DNA of 38,734 nt, from contig JAFDFT010000002.1 of NCBI GenBank assembly GCA_019309685.1, forward strand, positions 1-38,734. Reading direction: 5' to 3'. The stretch's first letter is position 1; each line of letters opens with the position of its first letter. Under the pieces are notes generated by a model. That model was not told the DNA's origin, ran no database searches, and worked only from the letters and a program-made list of their open reading frames with translations. The DNA comes from Deltaproteobacteria bacterium. Lineage in GTDB: Bacteria > Desulfobacterota > Desulfobacteria > Desulfobacterales > JAABPS01. The translations under genes were made by a program, and so were the position numbers. This document shows, piece by piece, positions 8,891-24,592 of the stretch.

Positions 8891-10291
8891 ATGGCGAATA
8901 TACTAATCATAGACGATGATAAAACGGTTAACGAAGTTTTTGCTGAAATCGCACAGGAACTCGGCCATAATGCGTTGAGTGAGACGACCTTAAAAAAAGG
9001 CTTGGAGAAAGCCAATAAGGGTGATTTTGATATTGTTGTGCTTGATGTTCGGTTGCCGGATGGTGACGGCCTTAAGGCTTTGCCGGACATTCAAAGTGTA
9101 GGCTCATCCCCAGAAGTTATAATCATTACAGGTTATGGCGATCCGGACGGTGCGGAGCTCGCGATCAAAAATGGCGCGTGGGATTATATTTTAAAACCAT
9201 CTTCAATGGAGAATATTATCCTGACGTTAACGCGTGCTTTGGAATATCGAGCTGAAAAGCAGTCAAAACAATTTCCGGTAGTACTAAAGAGAGAGGGTAT
9301 TATTGGAAGCAGCCAAAAAATGAATGTAACTTTTGAACGTATTGCTCAGGCAGCAGTCAGCAAGGCAAACGTTCTCATTGCCGGTGAGACGGGTACAGGG
9401 AAAGAGCTTTATGCAAGGGCTATTCATGAAAATAGTCCTGTTGCCAACAGACGATTTGTAGTTGTGGATTGCGCCGTGCTCCCTGAGTCTCTGGTTGAAA
9501 GCACCTTGTTTGGACATGAAAAAGGCGCTTTTACAGGCGCTGATAGAGCGCGGGAAGGATTAATTAAGCAGGCGGATGGCGGGACACTATTTCTTGACGA
9601 GGTTGGAGAACTTCCGCTTTCTTCACAGAAAGCCTTTCTCCGTATTATTCAAGAACACAAATTTCGGCCAGTGGGGGGAAGACGGGAAATTGAAGTGGAG
9701 TTTAGGCTGATTGCTGCGACCAATAGAAACCTTGAAGAAATGGCAGATACTGGCCAATTCCGAAAAGATCTTCTCTATCGTCTTCGATCTTTTACGATTG
9801 AATCGCCACCGCTAATGGATAGAATGGAAGACATTAAAGAATTGTCGGTGTATTATTCTAATCGGCTATGTGAGACTTATGAGGCTGAGACTAAGGGATT
9901 TTCGCCTGAATTTATTGAAGCTTTGAATCTTTACGATTGGCCTGGAAATGTCAGGGAGCTGATCAATACCCTTGAAGAAACCCTTTCAAACGCAAAGCAA
10001 GAGCCGGTACTGTATCCATATCATCTTCCTATAAATATTCGCGCGAAAATCAAAAGAGATTTTGTAAATACCTCTTCGAATAAAAAAGATAGTATCAATC
10101 CTGTTGATCCTTTAGAAGATAAAGGCGATGAAATTATGAAAATGAAGGATTTTAGAGAATTAATGGAGAGCAGATATTTAAAGAAATTGATTTTAATTTC
10201 TGGAGGCAGCAAAAAAGATGCTTGCAATATTTCAGGATTATCCCGTACCCGTTTATTTGAACTTCTAAAGAAATACAATATTGACATATAA
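8891..10291 (+). CDS. Sigma54-dependent response regulator (NtrC family: REC + AAA+ + Fis-type HTH)
   Basis: REC domain with acceptor context VVLDVRLPDGDG, Walker A GETGTGKE, a GAFTGA motif, an ELFLDEVGE-type Walker B (LFLDEVGE), and a C-terminal HTH (ACNISGLSRTRLFELLKKYNI). Confidence 0.9.
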   Translation: MANILIIDDDKTVNEVFAEIAQELGHNALSETTLKKGLEKANKGDFDIVVLDVRLPDGDGLKALPDIQSVGSSPEVIIITGYGDPDGAELAIKNGAWDYILKPSSMENIILTLTRALEYRAEKQSKQFPVVLKREGIIGSSQKMNVTFERIAQAAVSKANVLIAGETGTGKELYARAIHENSPVANRRFVVVDCAVLPESLVESTLFGHEKGAFTGADRAREGLIKQADGGTLFLDEVGELPLSSQKAFLRIIQEHKFRPVGGRREIEVEFRLIAATNRNLEEMADTGQFRKDLLYRLRSFTIESPPLMDRMEDIKELSVYYSNRLCETYEAETKGFSPEFIEALNLYDWPGNVRELINTLEETLSNAKQEPVLYPYHLPINIRAKIKRDFVNTSSNKKDSINPVDPLEDKGDEIMKMKDFRELMESRYLKKLILISGGSKKDACNISGLSRTRLFELLKKYNIDI

Positions 10292-10483
10292 GGCCCCTCA
10301 ACCAGTCCAATTTGTAAAGTAATCCCCCAAATTAATTGACGTTCTTTTTTTCGCCAAAGATGTTCTCTTTGCCGAACACTGCGTTTTACCCTATCGGAAG
10401 GATATTTTTGTAACCTGACAATCAAAACCTTATATGCTTGTAATTATTATATATAAATATTTTTAAAATTTTGGCTTCAAGTC

Positions 10484-10499
10484 TGGCATCGTTATTGCA
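10484..10499 (+). promoter_or_regulatory. Sigma54 (-24/-12) promoter
   Basis: TGGCAT-CGTTA-TTGCA matches the TGGCAC-N5-TTGCW consensus with exact GG/GC spacing. It lies ~70 nt upstream of the ATG at 10570. An AT-rich tract (10441-10470) and an inverted repeat CAAAGA-N5-TCTTTG (10355-10371) lie upstream. Confidence 0.75.
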
Positions 10500-10569
10500 G
10501 CCAAGCTTTCGGGACCCTGGGAATTAAAAATCAACTGGAATTGATTATGGTCATAGGAGAAAGAAAAAG

Positions 10570-10971
10570 ATGGTTTTCATAATTTACAAACCTTCAACAA
10601 ACAATTCGAATAAGCTTCAGCGTAAGATTGAGCCACTTGTTTCTAAAACGCAAGTGGAAAATTATAGTTCAATTAAAGATATTACGCAAAGACTTCAACG
10701 TCCAATGAAAGAAGAAGTGGTAGGGATTTTTATGCCTTCAAGTGAAAAAGATCTTTCGGACCTGCTGTCAATTAATCACCTGGTAAAAGACATTCGAATT
10801 ATTCTTGTGCTCCCGGACAGGGACGAAAAAACAATATCCATTGGGCATTCTTTAAGGCCGCGGTTTTTGACATATGCTGATGGCGACTTAAGTGATGTCG
10901 CAGCGGTGATGATCAAAATGATGGGCAATTCGAGGGAAGAACAAAATCAAAGAGGTGAGGTGTATGCTTAA
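10570..10971 (+). CDS. Hypothetical protein, possible degenerate (pseudo-)receiver fold
   Basis: 133-aa ORF with SD AGGAGA upstream. Hydrophobic strands alternate with amphipathic segments (MVFIIY.., VVGIFMP.., IRIILVLPD.., RFLTYAD..) as in a flavodoxin/REC fold, but there is no acidic pocket or acceptor Asp. The stop overlaps the next start (ATGCTTAA). Confidence 0.5.
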   Translation: MVFIIYKPSTNNSNKLQRKIEPLVSKTQVENYSSIKDITQRLQRPMKEEVVGIFMPSSEKDLSDLLSINHLVKDIRIILVLPDRDEKTISIGHSLRPRFLTYADGDLSDVAAVMIKMMGNSREEQNQRGEVYA

Positions 10972-12697
10972 CGGAATTAATAACGATCCACCTGCTAAAA
11001 AAACCGTACTGATTGTTGATGATGAGGAGGCAATCCGAAGCACTGTGGAAGAGGCGCTCGAAGAATATAAAGATTGGATAAGCGTTTTAACTGCTGAAAA
11101 CGGCAAGCAGGCAATCGAACACCTGAACGCGGCGAAAGTAGATCTTGTACTTACCGACTTAAAGATGCCTGAAATGGACGGATTCGAGCTTCTTGCATAC
11201 ATCAGCAGGTATTTTAACAATCTGGCGGTTCTTGTTATGACGGGATTCGGCTCATCAGCGATCACCACACGTCTTGAACATATGGGTGTTCCAAATTATT
11301 TGAATAAGCCCATTAACTTAAACACGCTAGTTGATAGAATCCGGGTTGGGCTTGAAGACAGTTCAAAGGGTTATCTGAACGGTTTTTCACTCGCGAACTT
11401 TCTCCAGGCCGTTGAGGTTGAACAAAAGACAATGTCGATAATGGCCAACTCAAAAGGTCAGGTCGGATATTTACACATTGTCGAAGGCGAGCTGATAAAC
11501 GCGGAAACGGAGGACCTGAAGGGAGAGGCGGCGGCAGTGGAAATCATCAGCTGGGAAGACGCCGAGATTAAGATCGTAAATCTGCGAAGTGAGGATAAAA
11601 AGATTGATACGCCGTTAATGAACATATTGTTGGAAGCATCAAGGAGTGAAGATGAGAGAGGCCAGTCTACCTCAAGTGAGGATTCTCTGTTAAATGAAGC
11701 AATCCAAAAAGCTGAGGCGCATCATTTCTCGGAGGCAAAGGAGCTGCTGGCCAGGGTTGTATCAGAAAATCCTCGTAACCACAAGGGATGGTTGTGGTAT
11801 GCGCGAGTGCTTGGAAGTATGAAAGCGATTGAAACATCGCTAAATAACGCGGCTAAAGTTTCACCTCAGAATACAGAGGTCATTGAAGAAATCAATAAGT
11901 TTAATCTGGCAAAAAGGAAAATTAAAAATGGATCTATTCTACGATGCCCGTTTTGCTGGTTTCTGTTAGATGCGAAAATAATTAATTGTTTGTCATGCGG
12001 GTCGTTTTTAACCGTAAGCGAAACTTTTCTTGCCTGTACAAAGCATGCAGATAAAGCAATTTTAAAATCTGCGATTGAGAGGTACCAGAGAGTTTTAGAA
12101 AGTGATTCAAATAATTTTAGCGCGCAGTATAATCTTGGTCTCGCATATATCAACCAGGAGATGTGGGATGAAGGTGTCAACCATCTTTCAAGCGCGGTAA
12201 ACTTGTCTCCTGAAAATAAATTTCTTTCCGAACAACTCAATTATTTGCTTAAATATATTGCTTCAGGTGATCCGTTTGTATCGAAACGAAAAGGCAATGC
12301 AGCTGATAGCAAAGGGGGGAAAACGGCCAATAAAGAAAAGACGGTTCTTGTTGTAGAAGACAGCTCAACCACTCGAGCAGTTGTTAAGACAACATTGGGC
12401 CAAATGGGATACAGGGTGGTTGAGGCGGTTGATGGACTTGAGGCACTAAGCAAGCTAAGTGCAGTAAAACCAGACCTGATCCTGCTGGATATTATTTTGC
12501 CTAAAATGGATGGTTATCAAATACTGGCGGCAATAAAGAAAAAGCAGGCATTAAAAGATATCCCTGTGATCATGCTTACTGCAAAAGACAAAATGATGGA
12601 TAAGGTAAAAGGGAAACTGGCGGGGTCAAATGAATATCTCACAAAACCTTTTGATCCTAATGAATTATTAGATATTGCGGTGAAATATCTTCAATAA
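10964..12697 (+). CDS. Multidomain response regulator: REC - PATAN/DUF4388 - TPR - CxxC..CxxC zinc ribbon - TPR - PilG/PatA-like REC
   Basis: N-terminal REC (LIVDDEE...LVLTDLKMPEMDG...NKP). DUF4388 signature (GYLNGFSLANFLQAVEVEQKTMSI...GYLHIVEGELINAE...GEAAAVEIISWEDAEIKI). TPR-like repeats. CPFC-X10-CLSC at 11945-11998. C-terminal REC (LVVEDS...LLDIILPKMDG...LTAKDKMMDKVKGKLAGSNEYLTKPF). I prefer ATG 10964 (SD GAGGTGAGG); the track start is GTG 10955. Confidence 0.8.
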   Translation: MLNGINNDPPAKKTVLIVDDEEAIRSTVEEALEEYKDWISVLTAENGKQAIEHLNAAKVDLVLTDLKMPEMDGFELLAYISRYFNNLAVLVMTGFGSSAITTRLEHMGVPNYLNKPINLNTLVDRIRVGLEDSSKGYLNGFSLANFLQAVEVEQKTMSIMANSKGQVGYLHIVEGELINAETEDLKGEAAAVEIISWEDAEIKIVNLRSEDKKIDTPLMNILLEASRSEDERGQSTSSEDSLLNEAIQKAEAHHFSEAKELLARVVSENPRNHKGWLWYARVLGSMKAIETSLNNAAKVSPQNTEVIEEINKFNLAKRKIKNGSILRCPFCWFLLDAKIINCLSCGSFLTVSETFLACTKHADKAILKSAIERYQRVLESDSNNFSAQYNLGLAYINQEMWDEGVNHLSSAVNLSPENKFLSEQLNYLLKYIASGDPFVSKRKGNAADSKGGKTANKEKTVLVVEDSSTTRAVVKTTLGQMGYRVVEAVDGLEALSKLSAVKPDLILLDIILPKMDGYQILAAIKKKQALKDIPVIMLTAKDKMMDKVKGKLAGSNEYLTKPFDPNELLDIAVKYLQ

Positions 12698-12752
12698 TTA
12701 TTTTGCTTGTATAGGAAAATAGAAATTAAATAAAAATACTATGGGAGGAACA

Positions 12753-13118
12753 ATGGCAAAAGAAAAGATTATGGTCGTGGATGATAGCCCAACTGAATTA
12801 AAAATTATGACGGAACCGTTTATTCCAAAAGGCTATGATGTTATTACGGCAATGGATGGAGAGGAAGCGATTAAGATGGCGGAAGAAGAGAAGCCAGACC
12901 TTATTGTGCTGGATGTAATTATGCCAAAGATGAACGGGTTTCAGGTATGCCGTAAAATTAAAACAACACCAGAACTAAAAGATATAAAGATTCTTCTGCT
13001 GACAAGCAAAAATCAGGAAAGTGATGAGTTTTGGGGAATGAAACAGGGCGCTGACGCTTATATGACAAAGCCATTTAAAGGTGATGAGCTGTTGGCAAAG
13101 GCTGAAAGTCTTTTGTAA
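12753..13118 (+). CDS. Single-domain CheY-like response regulator (PilH-like)
   Basis: MVVDDSPTE...LIVLDVIMPKMNG...LLTSKNQESDEFWGMKQGADAYMTKPF. SD GGAGG lies 4 nt before ATG 12753; the track start 12741 is less likely. Confidence 0.85.
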   Translation: MAKEKIMVVDDSPTELKIMTEPFIPKGYDVITAMDGEEAIKMAEEEKPDLIVLDVIMPKMNGFQVCRKIKTTPELKDIKILLLTSKNQESDEFWGMKQGADAYMTKPFKGDELLAKAESLL

Positions 13119-13205
13119 GTAACAAAGAATGTTTCAAATTTACAGCAAAGCCCTTTGGTTGCCGAGGTTTAGGAAATAGTTTTTGTAAAGGAGAAGACGG
13201 TTATA

Positions 13206-13844
13206 ATGCAAGAATCAGTTGAAGAGAATGAAAAGGATCAATCTGCAGCACAAAAAACCAGCTCTAAATCAGACCTGATGGATCTGGTAAATAGAATTGA
13301 GGGAGAAATTGAACGGCGAACGAAGCCTGAAAATACGGAAGCCTTAGAAGACATTGGTGCAATTGAATCAACCGTATTTGCCGAAAAGCAGTATATTAAA
13401 TTTATTCTGGCAGATATTTCCATGGCAGTTTCGATTACCAGCGCATTAGAAATTGGCCGCATGCCTGAAGTAACACCTTTGCCAAATCTTCCGGAGTGGA
13501 TTCTCGGTATCAGTAATGTGCGTGGTGAAATTGTGTCGATCGTTGACCCCAAAGGCTTTTTTGGCTGGCCCTTGAAAATAAAAATTAGAGAACCGCATTT
13601 TATTATCGTACACAACAATGAAATGAAGGTAGGGTTATTGGTGGACAGAATTGCGGGGATTGTATCTCTGGATGAGACAGATACAGATATTAAAGACGAG
13701 CCAATAGACAAAACGGAATTAGAGATAAAATTGGAGCCCTATATTTCCGATGTGTCAATTTCTGAAGAGAAACCACTGTATGTGGTTGATGTAGATAAGC
13801 TGCTGTCAGATCCGCGAATGAAGAGGGAAGCTGAAAATGCGTAA
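13206..13844 (+). CDS. CheW-like coupling protein with ~60-aa acidic N-terminal extension
   Basis: CheW domain pattern (YIKFILADISMAVSITSALEIGRMPEVTPLPNLPEWILGISNVRGEIVSIVD...VGLLVDRIAGIVSL). Confidence 0.8.
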   Translation: MQESVEENEKDQSAAQKTSSKSDLMDLVNRIEGEIERRTKPENTEALEDIGAIESTVFAEKQYIKFILADISMAVSITSALEIGRMPEVTPLPNLPEWILGISNVRGEIVSIVDPKGFFGWPLKIKIREPHFIIVHNNEMKVGLLVDRIAGIVSLDETDTDIKDEPIDKTELEIKLEPYISDVSISEEKPLYVVDVDKLLSDPRMKREAENA

Positions 13845-13966
13845 TTGCCATAAATATTGTTTAGTGTATTTTTTGAATTTAGTTAAACGCCAAATCAGAG
13901 ATTTGCAAAAAGCAGAAATTGTTATTTGTATAATATTTAAATAAATTAAGGAGAGCATTCATAATT

Positions 13967-16849
13967 ATGCCGCCTATTGATGATACAGTCAAAGGATTTA
14001 TTGAAGAAGTAAAAGGCTATATTGATCCGATAAAAGAAGGAATTCAATCCTTTCATGAGAATGCTAATAAATGGGATGCCCTTGAAGAAACCCATCGGCT
14101 TGTTCACACGATAAAGGGAGCGTCATCATTGTTAGATTTTATAGGGTTAAGTCATATTGCCGGGGAGATGGAAAATGCGCTGAATGATGTGTTTTCGGGA
14201 GAAATCACCATTTCTGAGGGCGTTGTAAACACTCTGCTGCATACAGTTGGACAAATCGATACTTACTGTGAAGAAATTGTTACAGGTGAAGTGGATGATA
14301 AAGCAATGGTGATGGAAGCGGTATCCGTTTATAGGCGCTTGCGTGATTTGCCTGAAGAAGGAGATGAAGAGGCATTTACTATTGTGTGGGAGTCAGAACC
14401 CGGTTTGGAGACAGGTTCAATTTCAGACATTGAAGGTAGATCCGGTGAAGCGGATGACTTGTTTAGTGATTTAATCAAAAGTTTTTACGATGAAGCAGAA
14501 GAGCACATGGAAAACACAGCGCGTTTTCTAAACATCCTTGATTCTCAGGTGTCTGAACGTACCGAAATTACGCCTTCACAACGGGATGCAATTAAAGAAA
14601 TCCGGCGATCCGTTCATACGGTCAAAGGTGCCGCAGGAATGGTTAAGCTGACCGAAATATCAAGATGGGCGCATGAAATAGAAGATGTGCTTGACTGGTT
14701 GTATGAGGAAGCCAAGGAAATTGACAGGCCCTTAGTAGAACTGCTGTATGACGCGACAGATTTGCTAGGGATATTTATCATAAACCCACTACAGGTTGAT
14801 AATGATAGACTAGATACGATACGTCAAAAATTTAGAGAAATATTAGGTGCTGATTTTTCCGGGCAGACTGAAAGCAATGACGGACAGGCATCAGAAGTTG
14901 AAACGGTTATCAGCGAAAAAAAAGAAACAGTAGAAATCTTTGAACCAGGTCCTGAAAAGATAAATTTAGAAGAACAGGTTCAAGCGGCGACTGATGTCGG
15001 CTATGGAAAGACCCTTAGAGTCCAGATGGAAAAGGTTGACGATCTTGTAAACCTGGGGGGAGAGCTCAGCATCGCTTTAAGTGGGTGTGAGCAGAAAATG
15101 GAAACATTTACCACTTCATTAAGCGAGCTTGAACTTTCCCGTGACAGACTAAGAGCGATCGCGCGTGATCTCGAAACAGACTATGAGGTGAAAGCGATTC
15201 AGGGATTGGGGACTACATTATCCTCAGCGATAGCGGGTGACGGGAGTGTGCTTCCAACAGGTGTTTTTGAAGAATTTGATTCACTGGAATTGGACCGCTA
15301 TTCGGAATTTAATCTTATGATCCGATCTCTTGCTGAAGCAGTCGTCGATATGGGTACGATTAACACTCAGATGCTGAGTATTTACAGTGAACTCGATGGG
15401 TTTTTAAATAGACAGAGAGTGCTTCTTAGCGAATTGCAGAACAATATGATGCTTATTCGAATGACGCCGATGTCAAGTATATCAAACAGAATGCGCCAGA
15501 CAGTCAGAGAAATGGCACGGGACCTTGGAAGGCAGGTAAAGCTAATTATTGAAGGAGAGGAAATAGAGCTCGATAGACAGATTTGGGATAGGATTACAGA
15601 TCCGTTAATGCATATTCTCCGAAATTCTGTTGACCATGGGATTGAAAGCCAGGACTTGCGCCAGGAGTTAGGCAAACCGACCTTTGGAACGATAAAAGTT
15701 TGGGCTGCCAGACAAGGGAACCAGGTTGTCATAAGGATAGCGGATGACGGTACAGGATTAGATTGTGAGATGATCAGAGAGAAAGTACGCGCGTCAGGCG
15801 TTCAAGATAACATTGACCAGATGTCAGATGAAGAACTGGCATTAATAGTTTTTCAGCCTGGCTTCACTACCAGTGAACAGGTCACTCAGTTTTCCGGCCG
15901 TGGTGTGGGGCTCGATGTCGTAAAAGAAAACATAGAAAGTCTAAAGGGATCTGTATCTGTCCATTCGGTTAAAGATCAAGGGGTTCAATTTACGATTCGA
16001 ATTCCCTTGACATTAGCAGTGGCTGAAGCACTTTTGTTCAGGATGGATACCCAGCAGTATGCTGTTTCGTTAAATGATGTGAACGAAATTTTCAGGTTTG
16101 GTCCCGGAAGTATTCCTGATGAGATGGAAGGGGAGTTGGAGATTGAGGGTGAAGTTTATCCGCTGTTTAATTTGAGAAAAATGTTAAATACTGATCAAGC
16201 TGCCGGCGATTCATCCAAAGCAGTGGATGATAAAATTGTACTTTTACTTGAGACCAGCGGTAAGCGGGTTGCGGTTTCCATAGAAAATATGATCGGAAAA
16301 AGAGAGATCGTTATCAAGAGTTTAGGTTCTCACCTTAAACAGGTCAAAGGTGTTTCCGGTGCAACCATACTTGGTGACGGGAGTGTGGTGCCGATTTTAA
16401 ATATCGAGGAGCTTATTGGTGGTGGAGCGATTATTACCGAGGGCGGTGAAGATGATTTTAGGCCCATAATCGGCAAGCAACTTGAAATACTGATCGTGGA
16501 CGATTCGGTCAGTGTAAGGCAGGTGGTTGCTAGGCTTATGGAAAATCAAGGATGGAAAACGAAAACCGCCAAGGATGGTGTTGAGGCATTAGAAAGAATA
16601 AGGGAAAGCAAGCCTGACCTGATTGTGCTTGATATCGAGATGCCAAGAATGAATGGATATGAGTTTTTAAACGCGATGAACGTTCAGTCACGCTTTAAAA
16701 ACACTCCTGTTGTTATGCTTACATCCAGAGCAACTTCAAAGCATCGTGAGAAGGCGATGAGCCTTGGTGCAAGAGGTTTTGTTGTAAAACCGTATAAAGA
16801 TGATGAGTTTATCGATATTGTAATGAGATTGACAGGTGTAAGTAGTTAA
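13967..16849 (+). CDS. cheA: Hybrid CheA histidine kinase: Hpt-Hpt-dimerisation-HATPase-CheW-REC
   Basis: Two Hpt motifs (HRLVHTIKGASSLL and RRSVHTVKGAAGMV), N-box ILRNSVDHGIE, G1 DDGTGLD, G2 GRGVGLDVV, a P5 CheW-like domain, and a C-terminal REC (ILIVDDS...LIVLDIEMPRMNG...VVKPY). Confidence 0.9.
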   Translation: MPPIDDTVKGFIEEVKGYIDPIKEGIQSFHENANKWDALEETHRLVHTIKGASSLLDFIGLSHIAGEMENALNDVFSGEITISEGVVNTLLHTVGQIDTYCEEIVTGEVDDKAMVMEAVSVYRRLRDLPEEGDEEAFTIVWESEPGLETGSISDIEGRSGEADDLFSDLIKSFYDEAEEHMENTARFLNILDSQVSERTEITPSQRDAIKEIRRSVHTVKGAAGMVKLTEISRWAHEIEDVLDWLYEEAKEIDRPLVELLYDATDLLGIFIINPLQVDNDRLDTIRQKFREILGADFSGQTESNDGQASEVETVISEKKETVEIFEPGPEKINLEEQVQAATDVGYGKTLRVQMEKVDDLVNLGGELSIALSGCEQKMETFTTSLSELELSRDRLRAIARDLETDYEVKAIQGLGTTLSSAIAGDGSVLPTGVFEEFDSLELDRYSEFNLMIRSLAEAVVDMGTINTQMLSIYSELDGFLNRQRVLLSELQNNMMLIRMTPMSSISNRMRQTVREMARDLGRQVKLIIEGEEIELDRQIWDRITDPLMHILRNSVDHGIESQDLRQELGKPTFGTIKVWAARQGNQVVIRIADDGTGLDCEMIREKVRASGVQDNIDQMSDEELALIVFQPGFTTSEQVTQFSGRGVGLDVVKENIESLKGSVSVHSVKDQGVQFTIRIPLTLAVAEALLFRMDTQQYAVSLNDVNEIFRFGPGSIPDEMEGELEIEGEVYPLFNLRKMLNTDQAAGDSSKAVDDKIVLLLETSGKRVAVSIENMIGKREIVIKSLGSHLKQVKGVSGATILGDGSVVPILNIEELIGGGAIITEGGEDDFRPIIGKQLEILIVDDSVSVRQVVARLMENQGWKTKTAKDGVEALERIRESKPDLIVLDIEMPRMNGYEFLNAMNVQSRFKNTPVVMLTSRATSKHREKAMSLGARGFVVKPYKDDEFIDIVMRLTGVSS

Positions 16850-16909
16850 TAATGAATCGCTGGTTATAGAAAAACCAAAAAGGCCCGCTTAGATCGAAAA
16901 GGTATATAC

Positions 16910-17347
16910 ATGCAACAACTGATTTTATTTAAAGTGTATGACACTCTTTTTGCAATAGACCAGAAATTTGTAAAAAAGAAGTACCAAAAAGAGGAGCTTT
17001 TTAGTGAGCGTGCAAGTAAAGCAAAGAAAGTAAAGATCAAACTGGATGGAACTGACGTCCCACTTTACGATTTGCCGGCTATGTTCGGCGGATTCGCTGA
17101 TGAAACAAGGAAAGGCAATGGTGAAGCCATGCTGGTAAAAGATGAAGAGGGTCACATGGTTTTTCTTGCACATCAAATTGAAGGGGCCGTTGAAATTGAA
17201 AATGAGTTTATTAAAGACCTTTCACCGGTTTTTGGAAAGCGTTCGTGTACGTATTTTCCAAAGGTTACTATAAAAGATAATCTGCCTGTTTTGATTTTAA
17301 ATCCATCAGGCATAAGAGCGGATGCGAATAGTGAATCAGCTATCTAA
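16910..17347 (+). CDS. Divergent CheW-like protein
   Basis: 145-aa ORF starting with the CheW-type pattern LILFKVYDTLFAIDQKFV...DVPLYDLPAMFG...MVFLAHQIEGAVEIE. Similarity is weak and motif-based. Confidence 0.5.
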   Translation: MQQLILFKVYDTLFAIDQKFVKKKYQKEELFSERASKAKKVKIKLDGTDVPLYDLPAMFGGFADETRKGNGEAMLVKDEEGHMVFLAHQIEGAVEIENEFIKDLSPVFGKRSCTYFPKVTIKDNLPVLILNPSGIRADANSESAI

Positions 17348-17377
17348 AATAAATGAGAAGCATAAAGGGTAGAATAA

Positions 17378-17881
17378 GTGAAAAAACAGAGTCAAGAAGA
17401 AGTCGTTGACCATAAGGTGTTAATATGTTCGGCAACGACGCCATACGTTGACGGGAAGCAAATTTATTTTCTTTTCAGCCTTTACCAGGTTGAAGATATT
17501 CAGAGAGAATTATCCGTTTATGATGTCCCGTTTTCAGCGCCGTTTATTGAAGGAATTACCGTGTGGCGTGACTTGACAATTCCTGTGATTTCACTGGAGC
17601 GATACCTTGGATTGCCGCTCGCTGAAGCGGGCCAAAGCCAACGATTTATTGTTATACGGTCTGCGCTGGGAACACAAGAAGATGTGGGGGAAATGCGAAT
17701 CGCAATTCGAACGGAAAGGGAAACTAAAATGATTTCCATTCCAGATTCGAATGAGTTGGTTACATCCAATGGGTGGATGAATCATGAACTCGTAAAAGGT
17801 GTCTTTGAGTGGGATAAAGGTTACATAGTGGTTCCTGAAACAGATAAATTGTTTCAAGGAGAAATCAGTTATAAAGGCTAA
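17378..17881 (+). CDS. Divergent CheW-like protein
   Basis: 167-aa ORF (GTG start) with YFLFSLYQVEDIQ...PFIEGITVWRDLTIPVISLERYLGL...RFIVIR, which resembles a CheW domain. Confidence 0.5.
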   Translation: MKKQSQEEVVDHKVLICSATTPYVDGKQIYFLFSLYQVEDIQRELSVYDVPFSAPFIEGITVWRDLTIPVISLERYLGLPLAEAGQSQRFIVIRSALGTQEDVGEMRIAIRTERETKMISIPDSNELVTSNGWMNHELVKGVFEWDKGYIVVPETDKLFQGEISYKG

Positions 17882-17916
17882 ATAACAATGATTGCATCGG
17901 TAACATTAAAAATCTT

Positions 17917-19326
17917 ATGTCTGACACAGAAGTAAATAATAAAGGAAAGCAAAAAACCATGGGGCAGCCAGCAAACGTGACCGAGTTCGAAAGCTTAAAA
18001 ACGGACAATGGGAATACAGATACATCCGGTCATGAAAACAGGTATCAAAAGACCGTACTCGAAAACGGCATACGGGTCGTAACAGCAAGTATGCCGGGCG
18101 TAAGGTCGGTTTCAATGGGCGTATTAATCAATGCGGGTCCCAGGGATGAAAGCCCGGAAGAATGCGGTCTGGCACACCTGATAGAACATGCTATGTTCCA
18201 AAGCACGAGCAGTAAAAACGCGACGCAAATTGCCAGTATCATGGATACTGCGGGAGGACAGATGGGCGCTTTTACTGCCAGGGATTATACATGCTATACG
18301 GCTACGGTGCTGGACGATTACCGTACGTATGCACTGGAACTTTTAAGTGATCTTTTGCTTAATTCAATTTATCCGGAAGAGAACATGGAAAGAGAAAAAG
18401 GCGTGATCATGCGTGAGATAGATGCCTCGAATGATCTGCCTTCTAAGAAAGTACACTCGATCTTAAAGGAATCCATCTGGGCTGATCATGCCCTTGGACG
18501 TCCGATTTTTGGATGGCCTGAGACAGTTAAGCCGTTAACGCGTGAAGACGTCATTTATTTTGTACATAAACATTACCTGCCGAATCGGATGATCGTCTCT
18601 GCAGCCGGAAATCTTGAGCATAGTGATTTTGTGGCGCAAGTAAGAGATTTCTTCTGGAGCCTGATGGGTGAAAGCATTCCTACGGATAATGGTCCGCCAT
18701 CGTATACGGCTGGGGTTACCATTGAGCATGCATCTGTTTCCCAGGCTTATTTTTCGTTAGGTATTAGGGCTTTTCCGTATGCGCATCCGGACCGCTATGG
18801 TTTTCATTTGCTCAATGCCATACTCGGCGGCGGAATTAGCTCAAGGCTTTATCGGCGGATGCGCGAAGAAAGAGGGCTGGTGTATGAAATAAGTTCGCAA
18901 TATCATGCGTATGAAGATGACGGTGTGCTAGTTATTGAAGGGAGTACCAAGCCGGAATATCTCATGCAGGTTTTAGGGTTAACCCTTGTCGAATTGTGGA
19001 GGCTCATTACGTTAGACGAGCCTGCAGATGAAGAAGAGTTATGGAAGGCGAAAATGCAAATCAGAGGGCAGCACATCATCTCAGGCGAGATTACCAGTAC
19101 ACGAATGAGTCAGCTTGCGACACAGGAGCAGTATTTTGGAAGATATATTCCAGCAGAAGAAATTATAGGGGAAATAGATGCGGTGGATAACCGTATGCTC
19201 GAAAGGATGGCACGTGAGTCTTTAATCAAATTTTTAAAACAAACGGCAATCGCCATTGTCGGCCCGAAAGCCCCTGAATATTATAGCGTTTCATCTATTG
19301 AAGACTTATTAAAAAGTTTTCAATAA
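17917..19326 (+). CDS. M16-family zinc peptidase (pitrilysin/insulinase-like), paralog 1, inside the chemosensory block
   Basis: HxxEH zinc motif (GLAHLIEHAMFQ) with a downstream EREKGVIMREI Glu motif. It has two-lobe M16B length and a ~40-aa polar N-terminal extension absent from the paralog at 34697. Confidence 0.85.
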   Translation: MSDTEVNNKGKQKTMGQPANVTEFESLKTDNGNTDTSGHENRYQKTVLENGIRVVTASMPGVRSVSMGVLINAGPRDESPEECGLAHLIEHAMFQSTSSKNATQIASIMDTAGGQMGAFTARDYTCYTATVLDDYRTYALELLSDLLLNSIYPEENMEREKGVIMREIDASNDLPSKKVHSILKESIWADHALGRPIFGWPETVKPLTREDVIYFVHKHYLPNRMIVSAAGNLEHSDFVAQVRDFFWSLMGESIPTDNGPPSYTAGVTIEHASVSQAYFSLGIRAFPYAHPDRYGFHLLNAILGGGISSRLYRRMREERGLVYEISSQYHAYEDDGVLVIEGSTKPEYLMQVLGLTLVELWRLITLDEPADEEELWKAKMQIRGQHIISGEITSTRMSQLATQEQYFGRYIPAEEIIGEIDAVDNRMLERMARESLIKFLKQTAIAIVGPKAPEYYSVSSIEDLLKSFQ

Positions 19327-19357
19327 ATTTTTCAAAAAATAAGAAAAGGAGGATGTT

Positions 19358-19513
19358 ATGGCAGTAGACCCTGTAGTAAAGAAAAACTGGATAGAGATTC
19401 AAAGGCAGCACAATGTTCCAGTGAACGCAATCGGGGTAAAGATTGATCCCAAGGATGAAAAAACCCTGAACATCTGGAAAGAAGAAGGGATTGATGAGTT
19501 TGTGAAGAAGTAA
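19358..19513 (+). CDS. Small conserved protein (51 aa), tandem paralog 1, family not recognised
   Basis: AGGAGG (19347-19352) lies 5 nt before the ATG. Product: MAVDPVVKKNWIEIQRQHNVPVNAIGVKIDPKDEKTLNIWKEEGIDEFVKK. It is 36/51 identical to the next ORF, with 14 synonymous codon differences. It is below the ORF-track length cutoff. Confidence 0.75.
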   Translation: MAVDPVVKKNWIEIQRQHNVPVNAIGVKIDPKDEKTLNIWKEEGIDEFVKK

Positions 19514-19599
19514 GCCAACAATGATGGTTGCGTTGGCATGTCAAGGGAAAGAAGTTAAATTGTTAAGCGTAAGCAGTTACTTTAACTAGGAGGTAAGTC

Positions 19600-19755
19600 A
19601 TGGCAGTAGATCCTGCAGTAAAAAAGAACTGGATCGAAATCCAAAAGAAGTATGACGCGCCGGTAAACGCCATTGGGGTAAAGATTGCTTCCAAGGATGA
19701 AAAAACGCTGAAGGTATGGCGAGAGGAAGGAATTGTCCAGTTTTTGAAAGAATAA
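19600..19755 (+). CDS. Small conserved protein (51 aa), tandem paralog 2
   Basis: AGGAGG (19588-19593) lies 6 nt before the ATG. Product: MAVDPAVKKNWIEIQKKYDAPVNAIGVKIASKDEKTLKVWREEGIVQFLKE. Length and stop position are the same as paralog 1. Confidence 0.75.
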   Translation: MAVDPAVKKNWIEIQKKYDAPVNAIGVKIASKDEKTLKVWREEGIVQFLKE

Positions 19756-20043
19756 TCTTTCGTCGGTTCATACCTCGTTGCAACATGCTTGTATTCCAAT
19801 AAACTTTGGAATGCATAAAATCCCGGCATTTTGGGATGAAAACCGATAAATGCTTGGATTTGCATCAAATTAGTACCTGTCTGAAGTTTTTAGAATGGGT
19901 CAGATTTGATGGATGGTGGAGTATGCTCAAATTATGCCCAATCATTTTGTCCCTGAAATTAATTATTATTACAACATGTTGGACATGTTTTCAATATATT
20001 AGAATAAACATATAAGAAGTGAAATAACAAGGAGGTTAACGAT

Positions 20044-22551
20044 ATGAAACTAAAACTAGAATTCCTTAACAAGTTTCTTGACAAGCTTAAGGGATGGAAA
20101 CCCTCTCTAGCAATTTTTAGTAGTATTCGAAATAAATTGCTGGTTTCATTGATTGCGCTGGTTATGATCCCTTTAATTGCGAGTATTTTTCTGGGAACCA
20201 ACCTGTCAAGAAGTCTGTTAATGGAGAAATCATTTGATAACCTGGAGGCTGTAAGAACCATTAAATCGAATCAGGTTAGAGCATGGTTTAATGAACAACG
20301 ATCTGATGCACGAGTGCTCTCCGCAAGTCCGGTAGTTATAGAAGCTGCAGATGCATTCCATGAAGCTGTTAGCAAGCTGCAACCCAAAGAGACGACTCGA
20401 AAAGGCGGGCATGAAAAAGGACTCGAGCCGATTCAAAAGCTTTATAAAGGAAAATCAGTTGTAGACAGAGGTGATGGGAGTGACTACAGCAAGGCTCACG
20501 CAACTTGGCACCCTGTGTTTAGGCGGTTTGTTCGGGAAAACGGTTACAGTGACTTGTATTTAGTCGACCAGGACGGTGATGTTTTGTATTCTGTGGCAAA
20601 AGAGGACTTTTTTGGCGTCAACATTTTGTCCAGGAAATACAATTCAACCAATATATTTAAATTGTTTCTGGCATTAAGGGCAAAAGATGCAAAACAGGAT
20701 ACCACAATTATTTCAGACTTTGACTTTTTAGGGGATTCAAAAACGCCTTCAGCTTACATCGCATCGCCTATTACCTCAAGACCCACTGGCGGGAAAGTCA
20801 TCGGTGTACTGGTGTTGCGCGTTTCCAATGATAAAATTGCTACAGTTATGGGTGAGCGGTCAGGCTTGGGGCAAACGGGTGAAACATATCTGGTGGGCCA
20901 GGACAACCTGTTTAGATCTGAGTCACGATTTACGGGGGCGTTAAAGGTTGAATCAGCTGTTTTAAATCCAATTTCACCCGTTAATACGGAAGCAACGAAA
21001 AGCGCCCTGGAAGGTGCTACAGATACAAAGGTTATCAATGATTATCTTGGAAAACAGGTGTTGAGTTCCTGGGCTCCTCTGCTTATTCAGAAACCGACAA
21101 GTAATAATCCTGATGGTATTAAATGGGCCTTTGTATCCCAGATTGGCCTGGATGAAGTACAGGCGCCAATTGTTACGGCGCTTAAATTTGCGGCAGCCTT
21201 GTTTGTCATCATATCAATTATAGCGATTGTTATCGCTGTTGCGCTGTCTGGCGGTCTGACCGGGCAGGTCCGGCGGATTATGGATCTTTTCGGGGAAATC
21301 GGTCTTGGTAATTTCGAGGCGCGCGGGCAGGTTCTTAGTAGAGATGAGCTGGGTGTCATGACAAGTTCACTCAATACTTTGCTCGATAATATTCTGCCGC
21401 TTCTTCAAACACGTGAAGAACGCGATTCGATGCAGGAATCGGTTATGAGATTAATGGACGAAGTTAGTGGTTTGGCGGAAGGTGACTTGACCGTTCGCGC
21501 AGAGGTGTCAGCTGATATTACAGGAGCGATCGCGGACGGCTTTAACGCCATGGCGGAGCAGCTCAGTGTCGTTGTTCGGGATGTTAAGGAAGCGACATTG
21601 AAATTGAGCAATACAACATCTGAAGTTAGAGATAATGCGGAAAATATGGTTGAAAAAAGCGAGGAACAGGCTGTTAAGGTTTCAGACGCGATGGCGTCAG
21701 TAGGCGAATTGGTTTCATCTGCTCAATTGGTTGCGGATAATGCGACCCAGTCTGCGGCTGTCTCGAATCAATCTACTGAAAATGCGAGGGAAGGCGCGAA
21801 GGCGGTTGAGGATACCAATAAGGCGATGGAGTCCATACGGGATAATGTGCAGGAAACAGCGCGGGCAATTAAGCGTCTTGGGGAAAGCTCCCAGGAGATC
21901 GGAAACATCGTCCAAATCATCGACGATATCTCTGAGCGTACATCAATCCTTGCATTGAATGCTTCCATTCAGGCGGCAATGGCCGGTGACGCGGGAAGGG
22001 GCTTTGCTGTGGTTGCTGAAGAGGTTCAGCGTCTTGCCGAACGTTCAACAAGTTCCGCAAAGCAGATTGATACGCTTGTTAAAAATATCCAGGATGAAAT
22101 CAACGAAGCAGGAACAAGTATGGAAGAGAGTATCCAACGAGTTGTTGATGGGTCAAGGCTGGCCGGGGATGCTCACAAGAAACTCCAGGAAATTGAAAAT
22201 GTTGCGGAAAACCTTTCGGGACTGATTCAGTCAATTTCAAATGTTGCCGAGGAGCAGGCAGCGGTTTCTGAGAGCATCGCGACGGCCATGGGAGAAGTTG
22301 GTGAAATCAGTTCGGATACGGCCCAGGCAACACAGACAACTTCCTTTGCGATGAAAGAACTTACCAAAATATCTGATGAGTTGCGTGAGTCTGTTGAGAT
22401 ATTTAAGGTTGAGGAAGCGGATGCTGAAGTGGAGAAAGAGGAAGCTAAGATATCAGAAGAGAAGGACGTGGACGCAGCGGAATCAGGCGACATGGCTGAT
22501 GAAATTATCGAAGTGGATGCGGGTGTGGAAGAATATAAGCAGAGCGCTTAA
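20044..22551 (+). CDS. Methyl-accepting chemotaxis protein: TM - Cache3/Cache2-type periplasmic sensor - TM - HAMP - PilJ-like signalling domain
   Basis: SD AAGGAGG. TM1 is [19 protein letters not shown]. Cache-type motif ([40 protein letters not shown]...GETYLVG). TM2 is [18 protein letters not shown]. Hairpin tip is [38 protein letters not shown]. The tail is acidic and lacks an NWETF-type pentapeptide. Confidence 0.9.
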
Positions 22552-22612
22552 GCGCAAAAGTGTTTTGGGAATGTGTCAATCAGAAAAAACACCTAAGGAG
22601 GTAAATTAACCA

Positions 22613-23176
22613 ATGAAAAAATTAACGATTATATTGATGGCCTGTGCATTTTTAGCCGCGGGCTCCATGACAGCATATGGCGGGGAACAGGCTCCGGCCA
22701 AGGTGAAAAGCTTTGCGCATAACGTTCTGGCCAAGTTCGGTTCTGACTCAGTAATTGTTAACGCAGTTAAAGCCGAGAATGCCAAAAAAAAGACACTTGA
22801 GAAAGTCAAAGAAATAGACCAGAAATGGATCAACACCATTGGTACTGACGACTTTATCGACTCACTAATGAATTCAGCATGTTCTCAGCATCTTAATAAT
22901 ATCAAAAAGGAAAACGATTTTTATGAAGAGATATTTGTAGTGGACAATCTGGGTGCAAATGTAGCTCTGACAGATAAGACATCTGATTACTGGCAGGGAG
23001 ATGAGGCCAAGTTTACAAAGAGTTATAAAGAAGGGGCTGGAGATGTTTTTATCAGTGATGTCAGTTTCGATGACAGCACCCAATCCTATTTGACTCAAGT
23101 ATCGGTGCCGGTTATGGGTGAGGGCAAGGTAATAGGTGTCATAATCTTTGGAATTAATGTTGATAAGTTAAATTAG
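22613..23176 (+). CDS. Secreted/periplasmic single Cache (PDC-fold) domain protein
   Basis: Signal peptide MKKLTIILMACAFLAAGSMTAYG. Cache-like body (EEIFVVDNLGANVALTDKTSDYWQGDEAKF...YLTQVSVPVMGEGKVIGVIIFGINVDKL). SD AAGGAGG. Confidence 0.7.
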   Translation: MKKLTIILMACAFLAAGSMTAYGGEQAPAKVKSFAHNVLAKFGSDSVIVNAVKAENAKKKTLEKVKEIDQKWINTIGTDDFIDSLMNSACSQHLNNIKKENDFYEEIFVVDNLGANVALTDKTSDYWQGDEAKFTKSYKEGAGDVFISDVSFDDSTQSYLTQVSVPVMGEGKVIGVIIFGINVDKLN

Positions 23177-23292
23177 GATAGTTGGTAATGAGATTCGTTG
23201 AGTCACCGTTTTTGAATAAGATTTGAGTAAATCATTGGGCAAAAGTATATGGTGTTAAATGCTTCGGAAAAGGCTCAATAAAATCATCATGA

Positions 23293-23601
23293 ATGACTCA
23301 TAGATCTGTTTCAGCAAATGCTTTTATTGATCCGATCAGCGTGTTCAAGATAATACAGGATTTTTACCTTTTGAACAACAGAGGTGATGTTCTTGGAGCA
23401 TACTACACGGAGAACATAACGGAGACGTCACTGAATATGCGAGAAAATGTGCCCCATTTAACCGATTTTCATGCGGGTATGTGGGAAGGAATCGTCAGAA
23501 TGTATACGGACAAATATATCTTCAAAGGTGTTGAGGTGCTGAAAAGAAAAGAGGAGGGAGAACCTTATTCCGTATATCTTGTTAGCTATCAGAAAAGATA
23601 A
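23293..23601 (+). CDS. Hypothetical protein (possible V4R/DUF2378-like half-domain)
   Basis: 102-aa ORF with no clear SD. The C-terminal HAGMWEGIVRMYTDKYIFKGVEV...YSVYLVSY resembles the C-terminal half of V4R/DUF2378-type ligand-binding folds. This is a weak call. Confidence 0.35.
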   Translation: MTHRSVSANAFIDPISVFKIIQDFYLLNNRGDVLGAYYTENITETSLNMRENVPHLTDFHAGMWEGIVRMYTDKYIFKGVEVLKRKEEGEPYSVYLVSYQKR

Positions 23602-23613
23602 TATCAGATTATC

Positions 23614-24162
23614 GTGAGACATGTAAAAGGATCTATGTTCATAGAAATTGTAAAAGGAATTAAATCCGATAAAAGCGGCGCTTACGACAATTTGCTTACA
23701 GAAGAAGATAAAAACCTACTTTCCAAGACTATTCTCTTAGGAAGTTGGTATCCGTATGATGTTTATAAAAGATGCTTTAATGCCCTTGCACAAGTAATTG
23801 CAAAGGGCGACATGGAGATTTGTAAACAATGGGGTCATGCACAAGGTGAAGGAATGATAAAAAGCGTTTACAAATCCGTGTTAAAGGAAAAAAATTATAA
23901 AACCGCTATGGAAAAGTTCATATCATTGTTCAAGCTAATGTATGACTTTGGTGAACTCTCTGTAAGTTTTATTTCAGATAATGAAATGGAAGTCGCGTAT
24001 AAAGATTTTGACCCGGATTTCCAGGTTTCCTATATTGTCGCCCAAGGATGGGTGGAGAAAATCCTCGAAATATGCGGATGTAAAGATGTAAAATCGAAAT
24101 TTCTGGTAAAATCCTGGGAAGGAGCCGGAGCTACAGCGCTACATTTTTCGTGGACGTCATGA
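23614..24162 (+). CDS. DUF2378 (TIGR02265-like)/H-NOX-V4R-like protein
   Basis: 182 aa, N-terminal VKGSMFIEIVKGIK, mid SWYPYDVYKRCFNALAQVI, C-terminal ...GATALHFSW. The overall pattern recalls the Myxococcus TIGR02265 family. This is recalled from memory, not searched. Confidence 0.45.
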   Translation: MRHVKGSMFIEIVKGIKSDKSGAYDNLLTEEDKNLLSKTILLGSWYPYDVYKRCFNALAQVIAKGDMEICKQWGHAQGEGMIKSVYKSVLKEKNYKTAMEKFISLFKLMYDFGELSVSFISDNEMEVAYKDFDPDFQVSYIVAQGWVEKILEICGCKDVKSKFLVKSWEGAGATALHFSWTS

Positions 24163-24340: not shown

Positions 24341-24416
24341 GCGGGCATAGCTCAGCTGGTAGAGTACAAGCTTCCCAAGCTTGGTGTCGCGAGTTCGAAT
24401 CTCGTTGCCCGCTCCA
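24341..24416 (+). tRNA. tRNA-Gly (anticodon CCC), CCA encoded
   Basis: Folds by hand into a cloverleaf: acceptor GCGGGCA/TGCCCGC, D arm GCTC..GAGT, anticodon stem CAAGC/GCTTG with loop TTCCCAA, T arm GCGAG-TTCGAAT-CTCGT, then discriminator T + CCA. Confidence 0.9.
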
Positions 24417-24562
24417 AGAAAAGCCCGGTTTTTCGTTAAAAAAAGGGTGGTTAGGGTAGTTCGTTATGTATGCGTGGGGTGGAGATAATTTATTTCTATG
24501 GTTATTTGCATGAATTGATAATTTAAACCACTTGAAGTGAATCTATCCGAATAATGATGGGA

Positions 24563-24592
24563 AGCGGGCGACAGCCCGTTTTTTGTTTTTTT
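24563..24592 (+). terminator. Rho-independent terminator
   Basis: AGCGGGC-GACA-GCCCGTT stem followed by TTTTTTGTTTTTTT. It lies 150 nt downstream of the tRNA and 18 nt upstream of rimP. Confidence 0.7.

Follow-up and report, generated by a model that had tools for sequence, protein, structure and literature searches.

An M16 peptidase and a 51-residue protein are co-inherited with PatA-type chemosensory gene clusters

Introduction

In the cyanobacterial Tax1 system, the kinase PixL, a CheA that carries a receiver (REC) domain, phosphorylates a PatA-type regulator whose phosphorylated form binds the pilus extension ATPase, and it also phosphorylates a CheY that antagonizes this regulator; CheR and CheB are absent (bioRxiv 10.1101/2021.06.11.447907; PMC11181946). 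The PATAN domain binds PilB1 and PilC, the PATAN-PilB1 interaction being known from Synechocystis only (bioRxiv 10.1101/2021.06.11.447907; PMC11181946). About 93% of CheA proteins with several histidine phosphotransfer (Hpt) domains fall into the type IV pilus (Tfp) and alternative cellular function (ACF) classes, and more than 90% of these also have a C-terminal REC domain (PMC10782961). Here we describe a gene block with a comparable core in a 38,734-nt stretch of DNA from a Deltaproteobacteria bacterium (contig JAFDFT010000002.1; the window), in which a zinc peptidase of the M16 family and two copies of a 51-amino-acid (aa) protein, s51, lie among chemosensory (che) genes. The block spans positions 10570-24162, and positions given without a locus identifier are those of the whole window.

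A second described system with a related layout is the Frz pathway of Myxococcus xanthus, which combines a CheA fused to REC, an output protein with several receivers, and two CheW proteins, one canonical and one divergent (FrzB). To our knowledge, the list of auxiliary chemosensory proteins (CheR, CheB, CheC, CheD, CheV, CheX, and CheZ) seemed closed, and it holds neither a protease nor a miniprotein. The conservation of the M16 and s51 genes with che genes, described below, adds a candidate of each kind to a family of PatA-type pathways.

Results

The M16 and s51 genes are conserved with chemosensory genes across phyla

We scanned one genome per species for s51, which gave 161 positive species genomes, and the best 80 of these 161 loci were taken with 10-kb flanks. 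Their neighborhoods were mapped by phmmer with the window's own domains and by all-against-all clustering. An M16 gene lies directly 5' of s51, on the same strand, in 56 of the 75 loci with enough upstream sequence. Where at least 8 kb was available on each side, che genes accompany s51 in 39 of 42 loci (CheA in 38, CheW in 38, a methyl-accepting chemotaxis protein (MCP) in 35, and a PATAN protein in 35). The conserved set obtained by clustering comprises M16 (61 loci), CheY (53), the PATAN/TPR-REC regulator (52), CheW (52), the MCP (51), and CheA (47), together with a degenerate CheW in 31 loci and, more weakly, in 10 more.

The link between s51, M16, and the che genes is found in at least four phyla, Desulfobacterota, Chloroflexota, Acidobacteriota, and Planctomycetota, and in more than one gene order. 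The Desulfobacterota arrangement runs response regulator, CheY, CheW, CheA, CheW2, CheW3, M16, s51, (CheY), MCP. The clusters of the other three phyla begin with M16 and one or two copies of s51, followed by TPR-REC, a PatA_N protein, CheY, (ParA), CheW, MCP, (CheR), CheA, and (CheB). In a third arrangement, s51 comes first and the gene for a REC-PATAN-TPR-REC protein follows directly. Even where s51 is divergent, the M16 gene is still immediately upstream. Close relatives of the window have an identical gene order, both s51 copies included, and cultured carriers of s51 include Desulfoluna spp., Desulfobulbus elongatus, and Desulfonema magnum.

M16 and s51 are therefore integral, co-inherited parts of this pathway family, since their linkage to che genes is kept across phyla and gene orders. 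The original prediction had called the M16 and 51-aa genes non-chemotaxis passengers. M16 peptidases are commonly housekeeping enzymes, and the window itself holds a second one directly 3' of pnp (34697-35989), a common housekeeping arrangement; s51, for its part, carries no annotated function. A chance insertion of unrelated genes with no role in signaling can nevertheless be given almost no credence, given the adjacency and linkage counts above and their spread over four phyla and several gene orders. The che-linked M16 proteins are, moreover, 47-60% identical across phyla, whereas their identity to the pnp-linked paralogue of the same genome is 37%, and by this measure they make up a distinct orthologous group. 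The passenger claim is thus contradicted. The original prediction had also named lack of conservation of these genes with the che genes as the outcome to look for; the neighborhood analysis, once run, gave the opposite outcome.

A literature search on M16 or insulinase-type peptidases with che clusters returned nothing relevant, and the inclusion of M16 and s51 is not described there. The view that the M16 and small-gene insertion and the three CheW paralogues are undescribed accordingly holds for the former. It does not hold for the extra degenerate CheW, for which Myxococcus FrzB is a precedent. The novelty lies in the family-wide presence of a predicted active M16 peptidase and an unnamed conserved miniprotein, not in the absence of methylation or the additional CheW.

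The che-linked M16 peptidase appears catalytically intact

Both the active N-terminal and the inactive C-terminal M16 domains are present in the che-linked enzyme, which probably starts at 17959 to give 455 aa and has the zinc-binding motif HLIEH at residue 101. The HxxEH motif and the distal Glu are kept in all 60 che-linked orthologues, and the columns AH..EH..F..T and EK.....E are at least 90% conserved among them. With these features of an active M16B peptidase, the enzyme is predicted to be catalytically intact. Its best matches in the PDB are 3HDI (E = 5e-72) and the beta subunit of the mitochondrial processing peptidase (MPP-beta).

s51 is a conserved miniprotein and a probable regulator of receiver proteins

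At 90% identity, s51 falls into 467 clusters, whose members almost without exception have a length of 51 aa. A search of 1.84 billion representative proteins puts the whole family at 84 clusters at 50% identity, nearly all of them stand-alone proteins. The alignment has 14 invariant columns and a mean column identity of 83% along its whole length, and the entropy at the three codon positions is 0.56, 0.33, and 1.38 bits. s51 is truly protein-coding, and purifying selection on it is strong. No other component of the module is as well conserved: its identity between phyla is 71-78%, and together with CheY (57-67%) and M16 it makes up the top three; the corresponding values are 45-54% for the MCP, 33-44% for CheA, 32-43% for the response regulator, and 26-37% for CheW. 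The tandem duplication seen in the window recurs in five of the other loci (L001, L027, L051, L065, and L080).

The AlphaFold2 (AF2) model of s51 (pLDDT 90.8) shows a helix at residues 5-16, a conserved PVNAIG loop, a helix at 34-42, and a last, short helix. s51 matches no Pfam or NCBIfam family and has no genuine sequence match in the PDB, and Foldseek gave no match to its fold in the PDB or viral libraries. Apparent PDB profile hits proved spurious, arising from the segment DEKTLKVW aligned to WD40 repeats, and the very long proteins returned by the representatives search are probably the same artefact. s51 and M16 both lack signal peptides and transmembrane segments, and the net charge of s51 is zero.

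In at least 40 of 76 loci, s51 is directly followed by a gene for a protein with a receiver domain, and in 18 by an MCP gene. Taken with the tight adjacency to M16, the kept catalytic site, and the high conservation that s51 shares with CheY and M16, this suggests that s51 is probably a small cytoplasmic regulator of receiver proteins and that M16 processes it or controls its amount.

We also considered s51 as a precursor peptide that M16 matures, as in PqqA/PqqF or in ribosomally synthesized and post-translationally modified peptides, with the product sensed by the dCache MCP in a form of autocrine or quorum chemosensing. M16 enzymes do mature or degrade small peptides, s51 is duplicated in tandem in several lineages, and the 18 loci in which it lies directly 5' of an MCP gene fit such a scheme. 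Conservation over the full length of s51 and its predicted compact fold argue otherwise, as does the lack of secretion signals in both proteins. The conserved neighborhood set contains no modifying enzyme (such as a radical SAM protein) and no exporter, the sensor domains of the linked MCPs vary between lineages, and the PqqF match is weak, at 32 bits against a cut-off of 320. A peptide cassette is therefore quite improbable.

Several che clusters keep s51 without an adjacent M16 gene (L020, L057, L078, and those with the Lys30 subtype described below), so that s51 is a working component and not merely a target of degradation. This persistence also bears on a reading in which s51 modulates receivers independently of M16, as a phosphatase or connector of the Spo0E or CheZ kind, while M16 trims some other substrate such as the MCP, a CheW paralogue, or the regulator. 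Among the products of the cluster are four REC domains that can be phosphorylated and no known CheY phosphatase, the gene immediately 3' of s51 is most often one for a REC protein, and the closest solved M16B enzymes process larger proteins. Against such independence, the M16-s51 adjacency is very tight, with a short spacer and the same strand even in divergent members, which points to a direct functional pair, and inspection of s51 revealed no known phosphatase motif. We consider separate roles for the two proteins unlikely, and continue to favor s51 as a receiver-directed regulator under the control of M16.

The Lys30 subtype, which occurs without M16, either heads che clusters or stands alone 3' of a gene for a PAS-PAS sigma-54 activator. 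In four loci (L004, L010, L017, and L074, with s51 at about 2797, 5523, 9242, and 9531, respectively) this subtype, marked by 'VKIKP[KN]D', lies directly 3' of such an activator gene with no che or M16 gene nearby; in L010, L017, and L074 a sigma-54-like motif precedes it. Such a position, together with sigma-54-like motifs ahead of 7 of 13 such loci and a C-terminal 'TLxVWxxEGI' that on inspection loosely resembles the ends of MerR- or excisionase-type helix-turn-helix (HTH) domains, could suggest that s51 is not a signaling component but a small protein of sigma-54 regulation that binds DNA or is linked to transcription. No HTH family matches s51 at E <= 0.1, however, no fold match was obtained, its net charge is zero, and a place 3' of the activator gene is expected of a target gene, not of a co-regulator. 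We judge a role in DNA binding highly improbable, and retain the view of s51 as a regulator of receivers.

Rare fusions of s51 were also recorded: FHA-s51 (P0180), s51-Smr-like (P0141), s51-transmembrane-lytic-transglycosylase (SLT)-like in a Bacteroidota-like context (P0192), and s51 with a Pro-rich linker and a C-terminal 'YRG' tail (P0142, P0146, and P0151). Their contexts, where visible, are uninformative; the fusions themselves suggest that s51 is a portable interaction module.

The core of the block resembles PatA-type pathways

Fourteen plus-strand open reading frames (ORFs) run without a break from 10570 to 24162, all where the original prediction had placed them, and the ORF map and Pfam domains bear out its picture of one co-oriented chemosensory module (Table 1). 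Pfam scans covered the block and most other window ORFs of at least 100 aa. They support the double-REC PATAN regulator, the CheY, one regular and two degenerate CheW proteins, and a CheA with two Hpt domains and a REC domain.

The PATAN regulator probably starts at 10964, so that it overlaps the gene before it; its counterparts in relatives are called at 577 aa and carry the PatA_N annotation. It is likely the output protein of the pathway. A zinc-ribbon-like CxxC-x10-CxxC motif lies within its TPR region (11945-11998, residues 331-348) and recurs in 51 of 52 orthologous PATAN/TPR-REC regulators of the related loci. In CheA, both Hpt domains contain the HT[IV]KG histidine, H-kinase_dim is present, Response_reg matches residues 841-952, and the P2 domain is absent; in relatives, the stretch that separates the two Hpt domains faintly matches FimL_C. 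CheW2 and CheW3 are called degenerate because of their weak CheW matches. CheW3 lies directly 5' of M16 in the Desulfobacterota arrangement, and 10 Desulfobulbus loci have a still weaker CheW-like protein at its position.

The signaling domain of the MCP aligns without gaps over 278 aa with that of Thermotoga maritima TM1143, and two 14-aa insertions are needed against Tsr, an alignment that does not reliably separate classes 40H and 44H. The receptor had been called PilJ-like, which applies to the signaling domain only: its sensor is dCache_1 and not the PilJ domain found on the MCP of Pil-Chp systems.

A multi-Hpt CheA-REC without P2, a PATAN-REC regulator with a CheY, CheW with an MCP, and no CheR or CheB in the window are the features of PatA-type Tfp/Tax systems, and by its domain content we assign the block to this Tfp/Tax-like, PatA/PATAN type. 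The proposed type IV pilus or ACF-like character thus finds support in the PatA-type regulator and in a multi-Hpt CheA-REC of the kind placed in the Tfp and ACF classes by survey (PMC10782961). The proposed parallel with both Pix/Tax and Pil-Chp is upheld for the Tax/Pix core; the features that define Pil-Chp, namely CheR, CheB, and a PilJ sensor, are missing.

Methylation-based adaptation appears to be absent

None of CheR, CheB, CheZ, CheC, CheD, and CheV was found by Pfam in the block or in most other window ORFs of at least 100 aa, and phmmer with CheR and CheB queries gave no match in the window. The window MCP contains zero consensus methylation motifs; in sister clusters, the mean number of motifs per MCP is 2.0 where CheR or CheB is present versus 0.88 where they are not. 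These findings agree with the earlier claim that the classical adaptation enzymes are missing, and we propose that methylation-based adaptation is absent from the pathway of this lineage, the enzymes having been looked for in the window. Their absence is not new, because cyanobacterial Tax systems also lack both CheR and CheB (bioRxiv 10.1101/2021.06.11.447907).

M16 as a replacement for CheR and CheB was considered and rejected: in clusters of Chloroflexota and Acidobacteriota, M16 is found beside CheR or CheB.

The block is likely a sigma-54-type operon

The sigma-54 promoter-like element lies 70 nt 5' of the first gene of the block and directly 3' of the gene for an NtrC-type enhancer-binding protein (EBP), which is likely the activator of the operon (Table 1). 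An EBP of the same cluster adjoins s51 or che genes in 10 other loci. In the close relatives L090 and L091, the -24/-12 element is kept save for one spacer base while its flanks have diverged, and a repeat block further upstream is nearly invariant within diverged DNA. This repeat block, at a position expected of such a site, is a candidate upstream activator site for the adjacent EBP. Sigma-54-like motifs are also enriched 5' of s51 or response-regulator genes in other loci, against a background of 0.11 per kb.

Gene spacing within the block is tight or overlapping, with the exception of a 288-nt spacer 5' of the MCP gene. Because the genes are close or overlapping, a promoter element precedes them at 10484, and a terminator follows the last gene, the block is likely co-transcribed as one sigma-54-type operon. 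A tRNA-Gly(CCC) gene (24341-24416), the only Rfam match, and a strong intrinsic terminator with a 14-bp stem and a T-run (24556-24587) separate the che block from rimP-nusA-infB; the two mark the 3' boundary of the che block.

The 288-nt spacer is predicted to be structured, with none of 200 shuffled sequences folding as well, and its mean column identity with L090 and L091 is 86%. At least one compensatory pair is visible by inspection of this alignment, and no Rfam family matches the spacer. Possible roles are in processing or stability, or as the site of an internal promoter. A 69-aa ORF within it (19806-20015) gave no Pfam match and probably does not represent a gene.

Some genes at the ends of the block are lineage-specific

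The first gene of the block encodes a 133-aa protein that gave no Pfam hit to PF00072 and an hhalign probability of 0.3% to REC; that weak alignment puts 'IFMP', without Asp, at the acceptor position. Its AF2 model (pLDDT 85) shows a (beta-alpha)5 fold, and nearly all Foldseek matches in the PDB are receiver domains, with TM-scores of 0.6-0.69 and E-values that range from about 2e-3 to 2e-2 and do not reach 0.001. The protein is thus predicted to be a receiver by fold only, and we call it a pseudo-receiver because it lacks both a PF00072 match and the acceptor Asp. The same designation in the original prediction is borne out by predicted fold and not by sequence. The protein is conserved in close relatives only. 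A 43%-identical homologue elsewhere (L084, 8001-8447) adjoins T2SSJ and T2SSK genes of type II secretion or pseudopilin-like character and not che genes.

At the other end of the block, the predicted periplasmic Cache protein was recovered as a secreted 187-aa protein with a sub-threshold dCache match. It is also restricted to close relatives, and is a possible periplasmic co-sensor. In nine Desulfobulbus loci (for example, L005, 12525-13751), a Peripla_BP_6 protein occupies the same slot directly 3' of the MCP gene. Another lineage-specific gene, for a ParA/MinD-type ATPase, lies between CheY and CheW in eight Chloroflexota loci, mostly Anaerolineales (for example, L006, 12671-13429).

The last two ORFs had been described as V4R/DUF2378-like. 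The first (23293-23601) is a truncated 3' remnant, since a deletion of about 1 kb, seen by tblastn and blastn against L094, removed the 5' half of a gene that close relatives retain whole, at 177 aa. The DNA missing from 23177-23613 (compare L094, 1160-2165) also held a 128-aa gene with a weak SpoIIAA-like match. The 177-aa family has no Pfam match, and a full-length homologue lies between the CheW and MCP genes of a Chloroflexota che cluster (L026, 6308-6829). The second, of 182 aa, has no direct Pfam hit at E <= 0.1; 4 of its 23 homologues match PF09536 (DUF2378), at E-values down to 2e-7. Its gene is not kept together with the system, and one homologue lies in an unrelated context. The DUF2378 assignment therefore stands transitively for the 182-aa protein and falls for the remnant, and a V4R identity has no Pfam or NCBIfam support for either.

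The block is flanked by housekeeping genes, with era, infC, rplT, pheST, and a MerR gene upstream and tRNA-Gly, rimP, nusA, infB, rbfA, truB, pnp, the second M16, and dut downstream; pheS, pheT, nusA, infB, truB, and pnp were named by inspection and not by Pfam scan.

Table 1. Features of the chemosensory block and its upstream region (window positions)
Feature	Position	Strand	Evidence or remark
NtrC-type sigma-54 enhancer-binding response regulator (EBP), REC-AAA+-HTH_8	8891..10291	+	Pfam Sigma54_activat 1.8e-66, Response_reg, sub-threshold HTH_8
Conserved repeat block TTGACGTTCTTTTTTTCGCC / GAYGTTCTCTTTGCCGAAC	10336..10377	+	About 120-150 nt 5' of the sigma-54 element
Sigma-54 -24/-12 promoter-like element TGGCATCGTTATTGCA	10484..10499	+	One mismatch to TGGCAC-N5-TTGCW
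133-aa pseudo-receiver, predicted CheY-like fold without acidic phospho-acceptor pocket	10570..10971	+	AlphaFold model
REC-PATAN(PatA_N)-TPR/zinc-ribbon-TPR-REC regulator	10955..12697	+	Pfam: two REC 1e-56, DUF4388/PatA_N 2.5e-10, TPRs
Single-domain CheY, PixH/PilH-like	12741..13118	+	Response_reg 1.4e-27
Canonical CheW	13206..13844	+	CheW 84.8 bits
Hybrid CheA: Hpt x2, long dimerization region, HATPase_c, CheW, C-terminal REC	13967..16849	+	Pfam
Degenerate CheW paralogue CheW2	16910..17347	+	CheW 33.6 bits; in 15 related loci
Degenerate CheW paralogue CheW3	17378..17881	+	CheW 44.8 bits; in 31 loci
M16B zinc peptidase, che-linked orthologous group	17917..19326	+	Both M16 Pfam halves
s51 copy 1, 51-aa cytoplasmic miniprotein	19358..19513	+	Strong Shine-Dalgarno; unnamed family
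s51 copy 2, tandem paralogue	19600..19755	+	71% identical to copy 1
Structured spacer, 288 nt, upstream of the MCP gene	19756..20043	+	RNA fold z = -3.98
Transmembrane MCP: periplasmic dCache, HAMP, long signaling domain (MCPsignal)	20044..22551	+	Pfam, transmembrane segments
Secreted 187-aa Cache-like protein	22613..23176	+	N-terminal signal-like hydrophobic segment; dCache_1 1e-7, below gathering cut-off
Gene remnant, 102-aa ORF	23293..23601	+	C-terminal 94 aa of a 177-aa gene
182-aa distant DUF2378-family protein	23614..24162	+	Homologues only

Discussion

Our analysis is consistent with a sigma-54 PATAN pathway that steers type IV pili or polarity, in which s51 binds a receiver partner and M16 processes s51 or sets its level. 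As a whole, we hold this model to be reasonably likely. The EBP would activate the promoter at 10484, so that the whole block is expressed as one operon. The dCache MCP would sense a periplasmic ligand, possibly helped by the secreted Cache protein, and control the hybrid CheA via CheW. Through its two Hpt domains, CheA could pass phosphate to three receivers, the REC-PATAN-TPR-REC regulator, CheY, and its own C-terminal REC domain. The regulator would provide the output, its PATAN domain binding the pilus motor, with the single-domain CheY serving as an antagonist or phosphate sink. This core is read by homology to cyanobacterial Tax1. s51 may then act as an abundant folded cytoplasmic miniprotein that binds a receiver-containing partner, most likely CheY or the TPR-REC regulator, and M16 may process s51 or set its level. 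Together, the two could provide a proteolytic reset or gain control of the pathway.

Several points weigh against this model. The partner of s51 and its cleavage by M16 are both deduced from sequence and gene context, and the solved M16B enzymes that match best trim larger proteins, so M16 might act on a component other than s51. Divergent s51-like domains are also seen away from che genes, and M16 coexists with CheR or CheB in other phyla and is therefore no simple substitute for methylation. A second promoter could lie in the 288-nt spacer 5' of the MCP gene. By its domain content, the CheA could be of either the Tfp or the ACF class. No pil genes were found in the window, and type IV pilus genes adjoin the cluster in only 1 of the 80 species loci; the proposed pilus output consequently draws on the PATAN analogy. 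That single locus comes from one Thermodesulfobacteriota metagenome-assembled genome (L002 and L024, which are the same contig; 4631-9656), where the s51-che cluster abuts a PilB/MshE-type ATPase (MshEN and T2SSE), an MglA-like GTPase, and two Roadblock/MglB-like genes. It is the sole direct genomic link to pilus or polarity machinery among the 80.

We tentatively raise the further possibility, about which we have more doubt than confidence, that M16 and s51 represent an unrecognized class of chemosensory auxiliary module beside CheR/B, CheC/D/X/Z, and CheV, in which a chambered metalloprotease sets the level of a receiver-acting s51. If so, pilus or polarity chemosensory pathways across Desulfobacterota, Chloroflexota, Acidobacteriota, and Planctomycetota would possess a proteolysis-based form of adaptation or reset. 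The cross-phylum tie of a predicted active M16 peptidase and a conserved 51-aa protein to one clade of PatA-type pathways makes the pair a concrete, biochemically testable candidate for this function in methylation-free pathways of this kind. It also singles out a strongly conserved small protein that databases now label 'hypothetical'.

Among described systems, cyanobacterial Tax1/Pix (the PatA-type regulator PixG, the CheY PixH, the CheW PixI, the MCP PixJ, and the CheA-REC PixL) shares with the block a PatA-type response regulator and CheY, a hybrid multi-Hpt CheA-REC, CheW, an MCP, and the lack of CheR and CheB. The regulator described here differs from its Tax1 counterpart in its extra N-terminal REC domain, TPRs, and zinc-ribbon motif, and the receptor is a dCache chemoreceptor instead of a photoreceptor. 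Two extra degenerate CheW proteins and apparent sigma-54-dependent control are further differences, as are M16 and s51, neither of which is mentioned in accounts of Tax systems (bioRxiv 10.1101/2021.06.11.447907; PMC11181946). No cyanobacterial locus is among the best 80 of the 161 s51 loci.

The Pil-Chp system of Pseudomonas aeruginosa (PilGHIJK-ChpABC) resembles the block in its ChpA-like CheA with several Hpt domains and a C-terminal REC, its two response regulators, and its more than one CheW; the faint FimL_C match in CheA relatives adds to this likeness. Unlike the block, Pil-Chp has CheR (PilK) and CheB (ChpB), its regulators PilG and PilH lack PATAN, PilJ has a sensor domain of its own and not dCache, and M16 and s51 are absent. 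Frz shares CheA-REC, a multi-receiver output, and a divergent CheW with the block; both are deltaproteobacterial-type surface-motility or polarity systems, and one related locus adjoins MglA/MglB-like genes. Frz differs in having CheR and CheB (FrzF and FrzG) and a cytoplasmic MCP, and in lacking a PATAN regulator, M16, and s51.

For the two added components, the comparisons are of another kind. Small modulators of phosphorelays, such as Spo0E-family phosphatases, CheZ, PmrD, and the Ira anti-adaptors, offer a functional analogy only: s51 is likewise very small, helical, and encoded beside receiver genes in a pathway with no recognized phosphatase, and it shares no sequence similarity, fold similarity, or motif with them. 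The M16B processing peptidases, including Bacillus halodurans BH2405 (3HDI), mitochondrial MPP-beta, and the pnp-linked YmxG/MlpA type, have the same two-domain M16B architecture, HxxEH motif, and distal Glu as the che-linked enzyme, which by contrast appears to form its own orthologous group and is paired with s51 and che genes.

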